NCBI GenBank assembly: GCA_044226625.1
Contig: JBGAGQ010000002.1
Location: 128,001 to 192,000 of the forward strand
From: Thermoanaerobaculia bacterium
GTDB lineage: Bacteria > Acidobacteriota > Thermoanaerobaculia > Multivoradales > UBA5704
DNA: 64,000 nt
Reading direction: 5' to 3'
Shown: in pieces, positions 24,249 through 30,601 of the stretch
Numbering within the stretch: the stretch's first letter is position 1
How the letters are laid out: each line of letters begins with the position of its first letter
Translations under genes and position numbers: made by a program
The notes under the pieces: generated by a model
What the model was told of the DNA's origin: nothing
Seen by the model: only the letters and a program-made list of their open reading frames with translations
The model's database searches: none

Positions 24249-24435
24249 ACGTCTCCCGAGAGTCGGTCTCGCCGAGCGCTCAAAACCACGTCCGCCCGGC
24301 GATGTCACGTTCCAAGGGCGGTGCGCACCCAACTAAATGAACTCGCGGTGCGGAGCTTCCTCTCTCCGGTGGGGCCTTCGGGACCCTAGCCGTCTGGGAA
24401 GAGGTGTCGTCTCCGGCGGGTTCCTTGGGGCCGTC

Positions 24436-25398
24436 ATGACGCTTTTACCCATCGAAATCTCTCTTCGAGCTCCACTTCGCCCTCCGGTTCGTCCCTCGTT
24501 GCGCGATGTCGGCGTGCCGACGGATTTTCTCGGTTCGAGCCTCGCGATCCGCCGGCTGGTCGACCACTTGGATCTCGCGAGCCGAGGTCTCGATCCGGTC
24601 TTGATCTGCGGCGAGACCGGTTCGGGAAAGAGCCTTGCGGCGCGCATGCTGTATGAGCTGTGCGGTGCGGATTCCGGTTGGGCCGCGATCTCCGCCGACG
24701 CCTTCGACGAGCGGCTCTGCTCGCGCCTGATGAGCGACCGCCGGGACCTGCCCCCGTCGCTCCTGGCGATCGAGGAGGTGGGCGACCTGTCGGGCGCCGC
24801 GCAACGTCGGTTGCTCCGTCTGCTCTCTTCCCGGGGGCCGCGGGTGATCGCCACGACCAGCCGAGATCTGCATCTCGAGGTACGCCGCGGTCTCTTCCTG
24901 CGCTCCCTCCTCGGCCGCCTGTCGAGCTTCGAGGTCGCCGTGCCGGCCTTGAGGGAGCGGCTGGAGGACCTGCCGGTCTTGGTGGAGCGGATCCTCGTCG
25001 AGCTGTCCACCCGGTATCGCAAAGGGGTTCGGGGGATGAGCGCCGAGGCGATCGACCTACTTCTCGGACACCCCTGGAACGGGAATCTCCGGGAGCTGCG
25101 GCATGAGCTGGCGAGCGCGCTCCTCTTGACGCCCGCCGGAGAGGAGATCCGGCCCTCCGCGCTGTCGCCGGACCTCCACGCCTCGGCGCGCACAGGGCGG
25201 TCGACCTCGAGTCTGCGGCAGCGAGCGCGGGAGATCGAGCGAAGCCTCCTCGCGCGCGTCCTGGACACCAACGGCTGGAATGTCTCGGCCGCGGCGCGAG
25301 AGCTCAAGATCAGCCGAGTGGGGCTCTCGAAGAAACTGCGCGTGCTCGAAATGAAGCGTCCGAAGAGCGCGCCGTCGCTCCCCCTGCGACACGCCTGA
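24436..25398 (+). CDS. Degenerate enhancer-binding-protein-like regulator (AAA+ core + Fis-type HTH), no GAFTGA
   Basis: GETGSGKS Walker A, VIATT, PALRERLEDL, HPWNGNLREL and C-terminal WNVSAAARELKISRVGLSKKL. Start uncertain (24337 or 24436). Confidence 0.85.
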   Translation: MTLLPIEISLRAPLRPPVRPSLRDVGVPTDFLGSSLAIRRLVDHLDLASRGLDPVLICGETGSGKSLAARMLYELCGADSGWAAISADAFDERLCSRLMSDRRDLPPSLLAIEEVGDLSGAAQRRLLRLLSSRGPRVIATTSRDLHLEVRRGLFLRSLLGRLSSFEVAVPALRERLEDLPVLVERILVELSTRYRKGVRGMSAEAIDLLLGHPWNGNLRELRHELASALLLTPAGEEIRPSALSPDLHASARTGRSTSSLRQRAREIERSLLARVLDTNGWNVSAAARELKISRVGLSKKLRVLEMKRPKSAPSLPLRHA

Positions 25399-25461
25399 GC
25401 GGAATGCGAGAGGCCCCGCCGTAGTCGGCGCGGCCCCAAGGGAATACGGGGTTCCGCATCC

Positions 25462-25510
25462 TAGACAGACCTGCGGCACGATGGTACCCTTCGAATAGCT
25501 CATTCGAGGG
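25462..25510 (+). promoter_or_regulatory. Sigma70-type promoter of ECF sigma 1 with an adjacent inverted repeat
   Basis: TAGACA (25462-67), 17 bp spacer, TACCCT (25485-90) with TG extension; TCGAAT-agctc-ATTCGA inverted repeat just downstream. Confidence 0.55.
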
Positions 25511-25521
25511 TCGCGGCAGCA

Positions 25522-26055
25522 ATGACTTACCTCCAACAACCCGAGCTTCAAGACAGCTTGAACCAGCTCCTGCTCGCGTCGCGGCCACGGCTGGAGCGCG
25601 TCCTTCGGCATTTCGAAATCCCGCCCGAGGACGCCGAGGACATCCTTCAAGACGCGCAGCTGACGCTGCTCTACAAGTGGGAGCAGATCCGTAGCCCGGA
25701 GAGTTGGTTGGTCGGTACTCTCAAGAAAAAGTGCATCATGTATTGGCGCAAGCGCCGGTCGAGCCTCTGCGATGCGGTGGACACCGCCATCCTCGACTTG
25801 GTCGCCACGCCGATCTCTCCGGATCAGGAGAAGGCCGAGCTCAGCTTCGACCTCAACCGGGTGCTGGGCAACCTGTCGGCGCGATGCCGGTCGCTGCTCA
25901 AGCTGCGTTACGGTCTTGGATATGGCCCGAGCGAGGTCGCCGAGCAGATGGGGTACCGGCTTTCGAGCATTCGAAAGGTGACCAACCGATGTCTCGCGGC
26001 GCTCACGCGGCAGCTCGTGGCCGTCGGGTTCAGCCAGGAGCAGACCGATGATTGA
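25522..26055 (+). CDS. ECF sigma factor (paralog 1)
   Basis: 177 aa; IPPEDAEDILQD (sigma2) and LRYGLGYGPSEVAEQMGY (sigma4 HTH). Confidence 0.9.
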   Translation: MTYLQQPELQDSLNQLLLASRPRLERVLRHFEIPPEDAEDILQDAQLTLLYKWEQIRSPESWLVGTLKKKCIMYWRKRRSSLCDAVDTAILDLVATPISPDQEKAELSFDLNRVLGNLSARCRSLLKLRYGLGYGPSEVAEQMGYRLSSIRKVTNRCLAALTRQLVAVGFSQEQTDD

Positions 26056-27394
26056 GCGCCACCCTTCGAACGAGCAGCTGGTGAGCTTTGGCCGCGCCAG
26101 GCTCTCGCGCCCTCAGAACCGCGAGGTGGTGCGCCATCTACTGTCCGGTTGTCGCCGCTGTGCCCGCTCTCTTGCGGCCGCATTGCCTCCGGTATTTTCC
26201 GTGGGACGCTCGGAGGTCGCGCCGGCGAATTACGACGGCGCGTTCGACAAGGCGCGCATGGCGTTTCTCGGCGCGCGAGCTGATTTCGAAGTCGAACGAC
26301 GTGAGACTCCGGAGCTCCTGTGTGAGCTCGAGGCGCATCCTTTCGAGCGTCAGCTTCTCCTGCTTACGAACAGCCAGAGATTTTGGACTTGGTCGCTCGC
26401 GTGCGCGCTGCTCGATCGCGCGCAGGACCTCGGGTTCAAGGATCCCGGGCGTAGCCTCGACTTCGCTAAGCTCGGCGTTCGGCTCTCGGAGCACCTGTCC
26501 GTCGGCGCCTATGGTGATGCCCGGGTCGCAGATCTTCGCGCCCGCGCCTGGGGGGTGCTCGCCAATGCTCAGCGGATCGGTTCGGACCTTCGAGCTTCCG
26601 GCCAGAGCTTCCTCCGGGCCGAGCGTTCCCTCAAGAGGGGAACCGGGGATCCCGTCGAGAAGGCGCGTTTACTGCTGTTGAAGGCTTCGCTGTTTGCGGA
26701 CCAGCGCCGTTTTCCCGAAGCGATCAAGACGCTCGATCGTGTCGTCGCGATGGCTCACCGGGTCGAAGACGCGCCGCTGATCGCAAGCGCGGCGGTGAAG
26801 AAGGGAATCGTGCTTGGGACGTCCGGCAGGACGGACGAAGCGATCGAGTGCTTGCGAGAGGGCATCCGCGGGATTGATCCTCGCTCGGATCGGCGGCTTT
26901 TCGTGGCCGCGCACCACAACCTGATCGTATACCTGATCGAAGGGGGGCGGTTGGACGAGGCCGTGGCCCTCCTCGAGGCGACGCGTCCGCTCTACGAGGG
27001 CCTCGGCGATCGCATGAACTTGCTTCGTCTCCGCTGGTTGGAGGCGAAGGTCGCCCAGAATCAGGGTCGACTGACGGAGGCGGAAGCTTTGCTCCGTTCC
27101 GTCGGCGCAGAGCTGGCGGAGCTCGGCCTCGGCTACGACTCTGCTCTGCTCGGATTGGACCTTGCCGGCGTCTACGCGCGCCAAGGGCGAACCGAAGAAA
27201 TGCGTACGCTCGCGGCCGAGATGTTGCCCAGCTTCCAGTCGCGCGAGGTGCATCGCGAGGCGCTCGCCGCGTTGATCGTCTTCCAGAAAGCGGCGAAGAT
27301 GGACCGGGTCACCTTGGGACTGGTGCAGGAGCTTTCTGACTATCTTCGCCAGTGCCGCAAGGATCCCGGGGTCCGCCTCCGCGATTCTCTTTGA
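26048..27394 (+). CDS. Soluble zinc-finger anti-sigma-like domain fused to TPR repeats (paralog 1)
   Basis: N-terminal HPS...HLLSGCRRC; TPR-like helical repeats; no TM segment; overlaps the sigma gene end. Confidence 0.8.
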   Translation: MIERHPSNEQLVSFGRARLSRPQNREVVRHLLSGCRRCARSLAAALPPVFSVGRSEVAPANYDGAFDKARMAFLGARADFEVERRETPELLCELEAHPFERQLLLLTNSQRFWTWSLACALLDRAQDLGFKDPGRSLDFAKLGVRLSEHLSVGAYGDARVADLRARAWGVLANAQRIGSDLRASGQSFLRAERSLKRGTGDPVEKARLLLLKASLFADQRRFPEAIKTLDRVVAMAHRVEDAPLIASAAVKKGIVLGTSGRTDEAIECLREGIRGIDPRSDRRLFVAAHHNLIVYLIEGGRLDEAVALLEATRPLYEGLGDRMNLLRLRWLEAKVAQNQGRLTEAEALLRSVGAELAELGLGYDSALLGLDLAGVYARQGRTEEMRTLAAEMLPSFQSREVHREALAALIVFQKAAKMDRVTLGLVQELSDYLRQCRKDPGVRLRDSL

Positions 27395-27540
27395 TCGACT
27401 CGTCTCGCCAGTTCTTCTCCAAAGTTCCTTCGCGCACTCCCCGGAGAATCGCGGCGCGCCCTTCCGGCCGGAAGATGCGTGGCGGTCCGACGTACGTTTG
27501 AGACTCTCGGGAATCCCCGGGAGAGGCCCGTCCGATCGCC

Positions 27541-27569
27541 TAGACAAAATGCCCCCCTCCTGATAATGT
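27541..27569 (+). promoter_or_regulatory. Sigma70-type promoter of ECF sigma 2
   Basis: TAGACA (27541-46), 17 bp spacer, TAATGT (27564-69) with TG extension. Confidence 0.6.
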
Positions 27570-27598
27570 AACTTTGGTTTACACGCTGTACCTACGCA

Positions 27599-28144
27599 AT
27601 GTCCGGCTCCGAACTCGACTCGCGGTCCGAGGCCGCATTCGAAGAACTCATCGACAAGGTCCGCCCGCGCCTTCGGAAGATTCTCTCCCGCTATCGGATT
27701 CCTCCTCAGGACGCCGATGACCTTATCCAGGAAACCTTCCTGATACTGGTCACCAAATGGGGTAGCGTCTCCAACCCCGAGGCCTGGGTTCTTGCAACTC
27801 TTGCCAACCGTTGCATCATCTACTGGCGCAAGAGTCGGTCTCGCCTTTGGGATCTGGTCGATGGAGTGGTATTGGAGCTCCTGGCAGACGTCCAGCCCTC
27901 CTTACAAGAGGGCATCGACCTGCGCGTCGACCTCCAGGCGCTGGTGGCCAATCTGCCCGACCGGTGCCGAAATCTGCTGCGCCTACGCTACCAGCTCGGA
28001 TGCTCGGCCGCCGAGACCGCCGAACGCACCGGGTATTGTCGCTCGAGCATCCGGAAGGTCACCCGACGTTGTATTTCTGCGCTCGCTTCGCAACTTCTGG
28101 CGCAGCCGCTGGCAGCAACCGTCGAGCTCGGCTCCGAGACCTGA
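27599..28144 (+). CDS. ECF sigma factor (paralog 2)
   Basis: 181 aa; IPPQDADDLIQE and LRYQLGCSAAETAERTGY; aligns end to end with paralogs 1 and 3. Confidence 0.9.
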   Translation: MSGSELDSRSEAAFEELIDKVRPRLRKILSRYRIPPQDADDLIQETFLILVTKWGSVSNPEAWVLATLANRCIIYWRKSRSRLWDLVDGVVLELLADVQPSLQEGIDLRVDLQALVANLPDRCRNLLRLRYQLGCSAAETAERTGYCRSSIRKVTRRCISALASQLLAQPLAATVELGSET

Positions 28145-28268
28145 AGAATCGGTCTTTTCGGACCTTTTCGTCACGATTCGCGGCGAAATGTCCCTCTCGA
28201 GCCCCCGAACGGTAACCTAGGTCTTAGAGATCTTTGCGGGCTAATCCGCATTTCCCAAGGAGAACACC

Positions 28269-28562
28269 ATGTCCCGACGTATCGCCCCCTTCGTCACCGC
28301 GCTGGCCCTCGTCTCGACCCTCGCCGTCCCTGCGGTCTCCCAGGCCCAGGCCGCCGCGGGTGTGCGCGAAATCGCCATCGAGTCGTCCTGGCTTTCCGGC
28401 TTGTGGAACCAGCTGATCGACCGCTTGGCGCCTATCGGTGACGCTCTGGGACTGGGTGGCAGGAGACTTGCTTCGCAAACCGGCATCGAACCGATCGCTC
28501 CGAAATCGGAGGCTGGGATCCAAATCGATGCAGACGGAAGGACGGCTCCAGCGAGCAACTAG
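28269..28562 (+). CDS. Small secreted peptide/precursor (97 aa)
   Basis: AAGGAGA RBS; Sec signal ending AQA; WLSGLWNQL helix; C-terminal EAGIQIDADG; GAAA-loop hairpin at the stop. Confidence 0.75.
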   Translation: MSRRIAPFVTALALVSTLAVPAVSQAQAAAGVREIAIESSWLSGLWNQLIDRLAPIGDALGLGGRRLASQTGIEPIAPKSEAGIQIDADGRTAPASN

Positions 28563-28626
28563 CCGAAAGGCTGGCCTGCCAGCGCCGCGTCGCGCGCGGT
28601 TACGCTCCAAATCCCGGTGTCTCGCC

Positions 28627-28659
28627 TGGACTTTGGCACGGGAAAGGTGTACCTTTCCC
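28627..28659 (+). promoter_or_regulatory. Sigma70-type promoter of ECF sigma 3 overlapped by a perfect inverted repeat
   Basis: TGGACT (28627-32), 17 bp spacer, TACCTT (28650-55); GGGAAAGGT-gt-ACCTTTCCC at 28640-28659. Confidence 0.55.
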
Positions 28660-28688
28660 CAGAGTCAGAAATTTGGTGAGCGCTGTCG

Positions 28689-29216
28689 ATGATCGCACTC
28701 GACGAAATTTTTATCGAAACGTCGCTCGAAACGTTTCTCGAAGAAGCACGTCCACGCCTCAAGGTTATCTTCTGTCGTTATCGGATCCCTCCGGACGACA
28801 CCGAAGACATCGTGCAACAGGCCCTCTTGGCCTTGCTCTATCGCCTGGGCTCCGTCCGAGATCCCCAGGCCTGGCTTATCGGTACCGTCAAGAACAAATG
28901 TCTCCTGTATTGGCGCGACCAACGAAGAAGGCTGTATGACTCGGTCGATTCCACCGTGCTCGAATGGATCGCGCAGCCCGCGTCGCCCGAGCAGGAGGAC
29001 CATGACCTCCGGCGGGATCTCTCGGCCGTGATCGAGACCTTGCCCCGACGCTGCCGCGCCCTGCTGAGCTTGCGTTATGGGCTTGGATATGAGCCCCCCG
29101 AAGTCGCTGCACGTTTGGGTTACCGGACCTCGAGCATGAGCAAAATCACGACGCGCTGTCTTTCGCTGCTTACCCGTCAATTACTCATCGCTGGTTTGGG
29201 TCGGAAAAAAATATGA
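28689..29216 (+). CDS. ECF sigma factor (paralog 3)
   Basis: 175 aa; IPPDDTEDIVQQ and LRYGLGYEPPEVAARLGY. Confidence 0.9.
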   Translation: MIALDEIFIETSLETFLEEARPRLKVIFCRYRIPPDDTEDIVQQALLALLYRLGSVRDPQAWLIGTVKNKCLLYWRDQRRRLYDSVDSTVLEWIAQPASPEQEDHDLRRDLSAVIETLPRRCRALLSLRYGLGYEPPEVAARLGYRTSSMSKITTRCLSLLTRQLLIAGLGRKKI

Positions 29217-30601
29217 ACGAGATTACCGATCATCCGAGCCGAGAGGTTCTGGAGCGGTTCCTCTTGGCGCAGCTTCCAGCCTCCGAAAGCCGTCGTGTTT
29301 TACGGCATCTATTGTCCGGCTGCCTGGAGTGCCAGCGCGAGGCGGGCGCCGCGTGGAAAAACACGCAGCCGAGCACGACCTCGCTGCCCATCGACCCAGC
29401 TCTCGACGCCCGATACGACGAGGTTCTCGATCGAGTCTTTCGGCGGGTGGAGCGGGTGGAGCAGCAGCTTGCCCGCGAGCGAGCGCAAGCGCAGGAGCTG
29501 CTCGCGCAGCTCGAGCCGCATCCCATTCAGCGGCAGCGACTCATGCTGCGCAACAGCTCTAAGTTCAAGAATCGTGCGCTTTGCGAACAGATGATCAAGG
29601 CCAGCCACGACCGAGGCTTCAAGGATCCGGCTCGCTCTCTGGAGCTGGCCGAGCTGGCGATCGAGATTTCGCAGTCGGTGCCCGACGACGCGAAGGACGC
29701 CGACCCCAGGCGCCACCTGGAGAGCCGTGCTTGGGCGCAGGCGGGCAACGCGAACCGAATTCTCGGCAATCACGATGTCGCCGAGCGCTGTTTCGTCAGC
29801 GCCGAAGATCTGCTCGCCGATTCCGCCGGCATTGGCATCTTCGACGAGGCGCGCCTGTTCAGCCTCAAAGCTTCTCTACGCCGCGATCAGCGGAGGTGGA
29901 GCGAGTCGCTGGAGTTGTTCGATCGGTCGATCTCGATCTATCAGAGCCTGGGCCAAAGGCACTTGCTCGGGCGAACCTATGCTCAGAAGGCGACCGTCAT
30001 CTCCGAGGTCGGGGATTTCGTCTCCTCGATCTCCATCTTGCGCCGCGCGCTGGAGCTGCTCGATCCCAAGGAGGAACCGCGCATCTTCCTCGCCGCCCGC
30101 CACAACCTGATCTGGGCGCTCTGCGAAAGCGAGCGCTACCGGGAAGCCTTCGCCTTGCTTTTCCATACCCGCCCGTTCTACCTCCAGGCGGGGGATCGGA
30201 TGAACCTGCTAAGGATGAGGTGGCTCGAGGGGCAGGTTGCCGCGGGCCTTGGCCGTCTGGAGCAAGCCGAGGTAGCGTTTCTCGAAGTTCGCCGCTCGTT
30301 CGCCGAGCTCTCGCTCGACTATGACGGCGCGCTCGTTTCGCTCGATCTAGCCGGCCTGCTCGCGCGCCAGGGCCGCGCGGCCGAAGTCCAGCACATCGCC
30401 GAGGAAGTGCTCACCATCTTCGTCGCTCGGTCGATCCACCGCGAGGCGATCGCGGCCATCGCCTTGCTCAAGCTAGCTGCCGACCAGCAGCGCGCCGAGG
30501 TGGCCTTGGTACGGCAGGTGTCCTCGTTCCTGCGCCGCTCTCGGAGCAACCCCGACTTGGTCTTCGAGGTCGGCGACGAAGCGACGTCCGAGGCGAGCTA
30601 G
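29213..30601 (+). CDS. Soluble zinc-finger anti-sigma-like domain fused to TPR repeats (paralog 2)
   Basis: HPS...HLLSGCLEC; shares GFKDP, HNLI, GDRMNLLR-x-RWLE, LDLA and HREA with paralog 1; ATGA overlap with sigma 3. Confidence 0.8.
   Translation: MNEITDHPSREVLERFLLAQLPASESRRVLRHLLSGCLECQREAGAAWKNTQPSTTSLPIDPALDARYDEVLDRVFRRVERVEQQLARERAQAQELLAQLEPHPIQRQRLMLRNSSKFKNRALCEQMIKASHDRGFKDPARSLELAELAIEISQSVPDDAKDADPRRHLESRAWAQAGNANRILGNHDVAERCFVSAEDLLADSAGIGIFDEARLFSLKASLRRDQRRWSESLELFDRSISIYQSLGQRHLLGRTYAQKATVISEVGDFVSSISILRRALELLDPKEEPRIFLAARHNLIWALCESERYREAFALLFHTRPFYLQAGDRMNLLRMRWLEGQVAAGLGRLEQAEVAFLEVRRSFAELSLDYDGALVSLDLAGLLARQGRAAEVQHIAEEVLTIFVARSIHREAIAAIALLKLAADQQRAEVALVRQVSSFLRRSRSNPDLVFEVGDEATSEAS

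Follow-up and report, generated by a model that had tools for sequence, protein, structure and literature searches.

Introduction

What does a small exported protein do in the midst of sigma factor genes? The question is raised by a gene for a 97-residue protein in a 64,000-nucleotide stretch of a Thermoanaerobaculia bacterium genome (GenBank assembly GCA_044226625.1, contig JBGAGQ010000002.1, positions 128,001 to 192,000 of the forward strand), which as a whole we call the window. The gene lies between two genes for extracytoplasmic function (ECF) sigma factors, ECF2 and ECF3. ECF3 is followed by the gene for ZAS-TPR3 (TPR3 for short), a protein with a zinc anti-sigma (ZAS)-like N-terminus and a superhelix of tetratricopeptide repeats (TPRs). 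A paralogous pair, ECF1 and ZAS-TPR1 (TPR1), lies upstream. Our answer, to which we give a probability of about 50%, is that the small gene encodes a pro-peptide like those of Rap-Phr and other RRNPP systems, whose C-terminal unit is re-imported and gates TPR3, a putative cytoplasmic anti-sigma factor. The coordinates of all features are collected in Table 1.

The small gene and its product

The small gene is real, evolves fast and is under purifying selection as a protein. The original prediction for this DNA, made from its letters alone, proposed a search of related genomes for homologs and for conservation of the C-terminal motif. A whole-genome protein search gave full-length matches in six of seven genomes of the same genus (E 2e-17 to 2e-10, 41–48% identity); the seventh genome, 85% complete, matched only at E 0.004. 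In all six ortholog loci the gene stands between the same two ECF sigma genes. Identity to the window across these loci is 93–97% for ECF1, 68–75% for TPR1, 76–82% for ECF2, 86–94% for ECF3 and 77–83% for TPR3, and only 40–47% for the small gene. The ratio of nonsynonymous to synonymous substitution rates (dN/dS) is 0.19–0.46 in all 21 ortholog pairs, and 0.29–0.46 for the window against the six orthologs. The small gene has therefore diverged quickly, yet under selection at the protein level. One RNA library contains a near-identical strain in which three of four changes in the open reading frame (ORF) are silent and one replaces Ile by Val (codons read by hand).

The C-terminal unit itself is kept. 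In same-genus orthologs GIQIDGNG (GILIDGNG in one of them) is repeated two or three times in tandem, and this unit is preserved within the genus despite the low identity of the small gene. In the window precursor the last unit alone is intact, the other two of the three being degenerate. An exhaustive HMMER search with the single protein returned eight proteins, one of which (P0007, 663 aa) is an unrelated repeat protein; in P0002, P0003 and P0006 the inner copies have decayed likewise and the last copy is kept. A word-index protein search with the same single query found only the query itself. The last unit is retained in every ortholog and positional ortholog, and G83, D87 and G90 are invariant in an alignment of 26 members of the wider family described below. 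The window unit reads D-A-D-G where same-genus orthologs have D-G-N-G, and the Pro that typically follows Asp in the family is absent; it is present (D-P) in the positional orthologs of genomes G086 and G089. Judged by these sequences, the window protein and its same-genus orthologs form a divergent subgroup of the family.

The elements named in the original prediction, a strong ribosome-binding site, a Sec signal with AQA, a WLSGLWNQL helix and a terminal SEAGIQIDADGR (residues 80–91), are all present in the sequence. The ribosome-binding site ends 6 nt 5' of the ATG and is kept as CAAGGAG in seven of seven same-genus loci. The signal peptide was judged by hydropathy and the AxA rule, not by a dedicated predictor: the Kyte-Doolittle 19-residue maximum is 2.06 at residue 5, AlphaFold places a helix at residues 5–19, and the AxA rule puts the likely cleavage site at AQA (residues 26–28). 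The 26 aligned family members have a signal of this layout. WLSGLWNQL falls inside the second AlphaFold helix (residues 36–59), with a pLDDT of about 81 over residues 41–50. The hydrophobic moment of this helix is moderate (0.43–0.53), its best value being reached by 318 of 10000 shuffles. In a wide alignment of the family W41 is invariant and L45 and W46 are nearly so. The rest of the precursor is modelled as mostly disordered, with a small hairpin at residues 85–93 (pLDDT about 66). One proposal did not hold: GGRR (residues 63–66), previously suggested as a processing site, aligns to the D-G-N-G of the first ortholog repeat and is a decayed repeat instead.

A family of predicted exported precursors

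A weak paralog built alike, with a signal, SWLIGLW and GITIDPSG, is encoded in the window's own genome. A profile of 12 sequences matches 85 of 92 genomes of the same taxonomic family at E<=1e-3, and a profile of 26 sequences finds 25–60 family copies in each of five genomes. The shared plan is a Sec signal, a Trp-rich helix and one to four units [DEKN]-x-G-x-x-[ILM]-D-P-[NDS]-G at or near the C-terminus, which we call DPNG units; across the family the unit takes the broader form G-x-x-[ILM]-D-[P/G]-[N/D]-G. The window protein has a Sec-type signal, a W-x-x-x-L-W-type helix (WLSGLW), a C-terminal unit and a nearby TPR paralog. The last unit is the exact C-terminus in 12 of 36 rows (one protein being counted twice), and many other precursors stop two to three residues past it, often with G-R-x. 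Units of one protein resemble each other more than units of different proteins do: identity at the five variable positions is 0.46 within a protein versus 0.15 between proteins. Such homogeneity within a precursor fits channel specificity.

The family is large, has no Pfam or NCBIfam model and is found in one family of Thermoanaerobaculia. Among 26 members there was no credible Pfam or NCBIfam match at E<=0.1; each library gave four unrelated single-member matches, the best at E 0.024 and 0.034. All 60 database relatives are labelled 'hypothetical protein' or are unnamed. Going by record titles, the hosts of the family are Thermoanaerobaculia or metagenome-assembled genomes of Acidobacteriota. 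The nearest ESM Atlas clusters are unnamed and from Acidobacteriota. In a sample of the phylum, with 16 candidates scored per genome, two of 301 genomes matched at E<=1e-6, both from the window's own family; at this depth the search does not establish that other families lack it. Proteins ending in G-x-x-(I/L)-D-P-(N/D)-G beside TPR genes in Thermoanaerobaculia, put forward in the original prediction, do exist, as seen in profile searches and cassette lists.

One sub-type has Cys around each unit, G-C-x-[IL]-D-P-x-G-x-C (G000 C69:32290-33198 and C57:2-559; L064 4472-4771; L068 4618-4914; L048). The paired Cys suggest disulfide-closed loops and an oxidising, exported location.

Pairing with TPR genes

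Family genes stand next to genes for TPR3 paralogs. We compared lists for the complete genome G086, which has 31 family genes, 59 TPR3 paralogs and eight ECF2-like sigma genes. For 29 of the 31 family genes there is a TPR paralog at most 1 kb away (random mean 0.78, maximum 5 in 2000 trials), and 36 of the 59 paralogs have a small gene within the same distance. The paired small genes are directly upstream on the same strand in 18 cases, convergent in nine and divergent in two. The family hidden Markov model picks out 13 ORFs in the window's own genome, which has 24 TPR paralog loci; by coordinate comparison, 11 of the 13 ORFs are at most 700 nt from a TPR paralog.

The partners fall into two classes, with either an XRE-type helix-turn-helix (HTH) domain plus TPRs or a zinc anti-sigma-like N-terminus plus TPRs. 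All nine convergent partners scanned match an XRE-type HTH, eight of them above the Pfam cut-off; named TPR families match eight, and the ninth matches ARM_TT21 alone. Ten same-strand partners have an N-terminal His/Cys motif, with TPR repeats in nine; one of the ten reaches zf-HC2. In 18 aligned ZAS-TPR proteins, with TPR3 as the first sequence, H7, H32, C37 and C40 are invariant. A hydropathy scan (threshold 1.6) found no N-terminal signal peptide or membrane anchor in neighbours of the size of TPR paralogs. Weak internal peaks of 1.64–1.71 occur once each in a 591-aa protein of L064 and a 488-aa protein of L068, and twice in a 450-aa protein of L069.

Two further features of these cassettes come from rough gene calls. 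Third-position GC is 0.73–0.85 in the cassette genes (small gene and TPR paralog) versus at least 0.9 in most neighbours (L058-L077, G086). Next to several XRE-TPR cassettes (L063, L065, L067, L071, L073, G086) the calls repeatedly show proteins of about 147 aa and about 324 aa, which may be further cassette components.

The conserved cassette with ECF3 and TPR3

The conserved cassette at the window locus consists of the small gene, ECF3 and TPR3. Other genera have the whole cluster as well, and in five genera ECF3-TPR3 is immediately preceded by the small gene. Positional orthologs occupy the gap before ECF3 in G086, G089, G013 and G022, with one unit each: GVRIDPDG, GIRIDPNG, GARIDGNG and GVRIDDNG, respectively. 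The consensus over the locus copies of the five genera is G-[VIA]-[RQ]-I-D-x-[ND]-G, at the C-terminus. The G022 locus retains the small gene, ECF3 and TPR3, although no homolog of ECF2 was detected in it, and the G013 locus lacks TPR1. Because these loci keep the three genes without ECF2 or without TPR1, we take the three as the constant unit. The original prediction had placed the small gene in the slot after the second sigma gene where the other two sigma genes have a TPR gene; that description gives way to the three-gene unit. In G088 (L079, C1:1322000-1333000) the small gene is lost, ECF2 and ECF3 stand about 100 nt apart, and ECF2 and TPR1 match only in pieces; going by these remnants, the peptide gene and its neighbours appear to be decaying together.

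The start of TPR3 is 654 nt downstream of the small gene, with ECF3 in between. The ORFs of ECF3 and TPR3 overlap by 4 nt and those of ECF1 and TPR1 by 8 nt. Overlapping ORFs are the usual layout of sigma/anti-sigma operons. Kyte-Doolittle maxima of 1.09 (TPR1) and 1.31 (TPR3) are both below the threshold of 1.6 and indicate no membrane segment. The AlphaFold model of TPR3 is all-helical (pLDDT 86.5, pTM 0.72), with three short N-terminal helices, a long helix and about eight TPR pairs. Foldseek ranks TPR domains of LGN/Pins first (E about 1e-7) and designed TPRs next; Rap proteins, including the Rap of phage phi3T with its pheromone, appear at ranks 30–45 together with kinesin light chain. 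Sequence searches of the PDB gave generic TPR or HTH matches only. Modifying enzymes of ribosomally synthesized and post-translationally modified peptides were absent from the seven scanned neighbours (sigma factors, TPR proteins and an AAA+/HTH regulator). The genes beyond these we take, from their sequences, to be an LptF/G-like permease and ParA/ParB.

Upstream motif and transcription

A bipartite motif followed by a near-palindrome lies upstream of the small gene. Both are conserved in seven of seven same-genus loci, and both half-sites of the motif are kept in positional orthologs of three other genera. The ECF genes have a different pattern: alignments of all same-genus loci show a conserved, sigma-70-like TGGACA/TAGACA-N17-TAnnnT before each of ECF1, ECF2 and ECF3 (25440-25521, 27520-27598 and 28627-28655), while a consensus promoter scan called no promoter at these genes. 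From these alignments the ECF genes look constitutive, or transcribed by the housekeeping sigma factor, rather than autoregulated through an ECF-type promoter. The motif upstream of the small gene, unlike that pattern, is compatible with an alternative sigma factor.

The extended upstream block occurs once in the genome. Loosening the motif to TGTC[CT][CT]T-N11-15-CGGnAAC gives eight genome sites, versus zero to three in five shuffles; the seven other sites (G000) are C5:86812, C13:53441, C21:67475, C36:20275, C38:40311, C76:96735 and C81:93796. We rejected the block as a regulon motif: in its extended form it is unique, the loosened sites are too few, and it is absent from the other nine of ten G086 cassettes inspected. 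A sigma-54 promoter was also rejected, as no TGGCAC-N5-TTGC was seen upstream by eye and the neighbouring AAA+ protein lacks GAFTGA.

Unstranded contigs of one metatranscriptome library, 98–99% identical to the window, span 28061-28266 and 28400-28758, and a second RNA library covers parts of ECF3. In library X2 no cover was seen at 27400-28060 or 28296-28359.

Proposed mechanism and alternatives

In the scheme that we infer, from export and signal cleavage through processing and uptake to binding and the way in which ECF3 is affected, the precursor would leave the cell via Sec with its Trp-rich helix serving as a pro-region, and the C-terminal unit (about SEA-GIQIDADG-R) would be released outside. 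The released peptide would be taken up again and bind the TPR superhelix of cytoplasmic TPR3, encoded two genes downstream, which would alter the hold of TPR3 on ECF3. The genome has one gene for an OppA-type binding protein. The layout fits the signalling-peptide precursor put forward in the original prediction: a signal, a pro-helix and repeated C-terminal units beside a cytoplasmic TPR protein.

Several observations weigh against this scheme. An outer membrane separates the exported peptide from re-import. The receptors have no sequence or profile relation to RRNPP families (Pfam scans give generic TPRs only), and the best 60 matches of a PDB profile search are generic TPR proteins alone, with no RRNPP protein. 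As modelled, TPR3 is a generic peptide-binding TPR superhelix and is not evidence for RRNPP ancestry. The zinc motif of TPR3 is spaced H-x4-C-x2-C, not H-x3-C-x2-C as in the classical ZAS motif, and for TPR1 and TPR3 alike Pfam zf-HC2 gives no match at E<=0.1. An adjacent sigma gene is lacking for most ZAS-TPR paralogs, as the eight ECF2-like genes versus 59 TPR paralogs of G086 illustrate. Of three units the window copy keeps one, in which Ala replaces the family Pro. The likeness of units within a precursor also follows from recent tandem duplication. Finally, presence in RNA libraries is not proof of transcription.

The tight adjacency of the genes fits a module of regulator and target as well as it fits a receptor and its ligand. 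In such a module TPR3, together with ECF3, would sense something else and control transcription of the small gene, whose exported product would be the effector: a surface or matrix peptide, a bacteriocin-like peptide or a competition factor. The conserved bipartite motif upstream of the small gene, unlike sigma-70 promoters, agrees with this account, and an exported, partly disordered product suits it. It leaves unexplained what dozens of cytoplasmic TPR sensors per genome would sense, and C-terminal units that are uniform within a precursor and different between paralogs are what one sees in cognate signal peptides. Nor do the other G086 cassettes mentioned above share the upstream motif. We consider this account, the main rival, rather unlikely.

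That the precursor acts whole, as a periplasmic or surface protein whose units bind metal (e.g. Ca2+) or form turns, we think improbable. The units are rich in Asp, Asn and Gly, AlphaFold models the small hairpin at residues 85–93, and the Cys-bracketed variants suggest a displayed loop; against this, no Pfam or NCBIfam calcium-binding repeat matched, the window protein and its positional orthologs have one unit only, and the pairing with cytoplasmic TPR proteins is left unexplained. Even less probable, in our judgement, is that the window copy is a decaying, non-functional paralog. Its two degenerate units and missing canonical Pro, and the outright loss of the gene in G088, would agree with decay. 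The low dN/dS against all six orthologs disagrees with it, as do the mostly silent changes in the near-identical RNA-library strain, an intact frame, ribosome-binding site, signal, Trp helix and last unit, and the positional orthologs in four other genomes, which are likewise single-unit.

Returning to the re-imported peptide, a wider version of that reading can be sketched, on which we would place less than even odds. A peptide-gated ECF switch would operate in a diderm phylum, with the re-imported octapeptide binding the TPR superhelix of the soluble anti-sigma factor and either releasing or locking ECF3. The dozens of cassettes per genome without a sigma gene might converge in trans on a few ECF sigma factors and so make up a network of many channels. 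With such a switch, RRNPP-like pheromone systems would for the first time extend beyond Bacillota, and an anti-sigma factor would for the first time be under the control of a peptide pheromone.

Comparison with known systems

In the passages cited here, RRNPP systems are described as Gram-positive (PMC10075063, PMC7430634), and peptide pheromone signalling through cytoplasmic TPR proteins is treated as a trait of Bacillota and mobile elements (PMC10075063, 10.1101/2025.10.09.681396). A literature search found no description of RRNPP-type signalling in Acidobacteria, nor of a pairing of sigma factors with TPR proteins in Thermoanaerobaculia.

The window locus shares with Rap-Phr and the other RRNPP(A) systems (PlcR-PapR, NprR-NprX, PrgX, Rgg-SHP, AimR-AimP) a small gene for a Sec-exported pro-peptide beside a gene for a cytoplasmic TPR-type receptor. 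It also shares the place of the active part (here proposed) at the precursor C-terminus and the many paralogous cassettes per genome. A subset of the receptors combine an XRE-type HTH with TPRs, as PlcR, NprR and PrgX do. The differences are as many. The host is a diderm, an acidobacterium, and the receptors match by generic TPR fold, not by sequence or profile homology. The precursors, at about 90–120 aa, are longer and contain a Trp helix and units repeated in tandem, and the peptide gene is upstream of or convergent to the receptor gene. Here a zinc anti-sigma domain, beside an ECF sigma factor encoded with it, provides the output, and binding of the peptide is a proposal.

TPR3 resembles ZAS proteins of the RsrA, ChrR and RslA type in its N-terminal helical domain with invariant His/His/Cys/Cys, in the overlap with an ECF gene and in being soluble. 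It differs from them in the points raised above (motif spacing, zf-HC2 and paralogs without a sigma gene) and in its sensor, a TPR superhelix of about 350 aa. Coupling of a TPR module to ECF control is known from ECF42, a sigma factor with a TPR C-terminal extension, and from ECF267, with a FecR-like anti-sigma factor bearing TPRs, as described in parts of the ECF classification paper (PMC7826278). Here, unlike in those groups, the TPRs are on a separate, soluble ZAS-type protein that is paired with a gene for a secreted repeat peptide; the tetratricopeptide passages of that paper describe no such arrangement (PMC7826278). The apparent contribution of this locus to the picture of the cassettes lies in the ECF genes that overlap ZAS-TPR genes and in the five-genus unit of small gene, ECF3 and TPR3.

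The precursor plan of signal, pro-region and tandem units is also that of the yeast alpha-factor prepro-protein, in which several near-identical mature units are separated by short spacers. The two are not homologous. The yeast factor is eukaryotic, Kex2 does its processing and its receptor sits in the membrane.

If the re-imported peptide is real, dozens of private peptide channels would be at work in soil and sludge Acidobacteria, and ECF regulation would gain a new type of input, a self-made peptide. Among such cassettes this locus gives the clearest output, a co-encoded and translationally coupled ECF sigma factor. The idea reduces to three parts (peptide, TPR3 and ECF3) and one candidate promoter, and is thus directly testable.

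Features of the locus

Table 1. Positions of the features discussed (numbered from the first letter of the window)
Feature	Position	Strand	Evidence
ECF1 + ZAS-TPR1 operon, paralogous sigma/anti-sigma pair	25522..27394	+	Pfam, NCBIfam, overlap
ECF sigma factor 2, upstream neighbour, outside the constant unit	27599..28144	+	Pfam, NCBIfam
Bipartite motif TGTCCCT-N14-CGGTAAC, then near-palindrome CTAGGTCTTAG; candidate promoter	28189..28227	+	Conservation; promoter role inferred
Ribosome-binding site AAGGAG	28257..28262	+	Sequence; conserved among same-genus loci
Small exported precursor gene, 97 aa, divergent member of DPNG-unit family	28269..28562	+	ORF list, orthologs, dN/dS
Sec-type signal peptide, residues 1-28 (MSRR, hydrophobic core, AQA)	28269..28352	+	Hydropathy, AlphaFold, family layout
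Trp-rich pro-region helix, residues 36-59, WLSGLWNQLIDRL	28374..28445	+	AlphaFold, conservation, hydrophobic moment
Decayed repeat unit 1, ALGLGGRR (contains GGRR)	28443..28466	+	Aligns to orthologs' GIQIDGNG
Decayed repeat unit 2, GIEPIA	28482..28499	+	Aligns to orthologs' second GIQIDGNG
Intact C-terminal unit GIQIDADG, residues 83-90, flanks SEA and R	28515..28538	+	Family conservation
Hairpin with GAAA loop across stop codon, probably non-functional	28559..28574	+	RNA folding
ECF sigma factor 3, first gene 3' of small gene	28689..29216	+	Sigma70_r2, r4_2, TIGR02937
ZAS-TPR3, zinc anti-sigma-like N-terminus and TPR superhelix, proposed receptor	29213..30601	+	TPR_12, invariant H/H/C/C

The GAAA-loop hairpin reported earlier is present at the stop codon of the small gene (CUAGCC-GAAA-GGCUGG, a 6-bp stem), although its folding is not significant (z -1.27), it has no T run and it is not conserved in same-genus loci. 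An intrinsic terminator at this place was rejected, as the terminator scan calls none there. A terminator-like hairpin with a T run directly follows the ECF2 stop codon (28151-28164, + strand); the scan found 2 such hairpins where chance predicts 1.8, and the orthologs do not conserve this one.

Several family members have a further element some 50–90 nt before the start codon, seen by eye: GG[CT]A[AC]C[C], 6–8 nt and TGGAG(A) (L058, L059, L068, L074, L078 and L081; window 28211-28233).

A gene for a 353-aa AAA+ protein (24337-25398, + strand) comes immediately before ECF1 and is conserved there in the six same-genus loci (74–80% identity). The protein has Sigma54_activ_2, AAA_lid_14 and a Fis-type HTH_8, lacks both a receiver domain and a GAFTGA-like motif, and may be a sigma-54-independent regulator belonging to the cluster.

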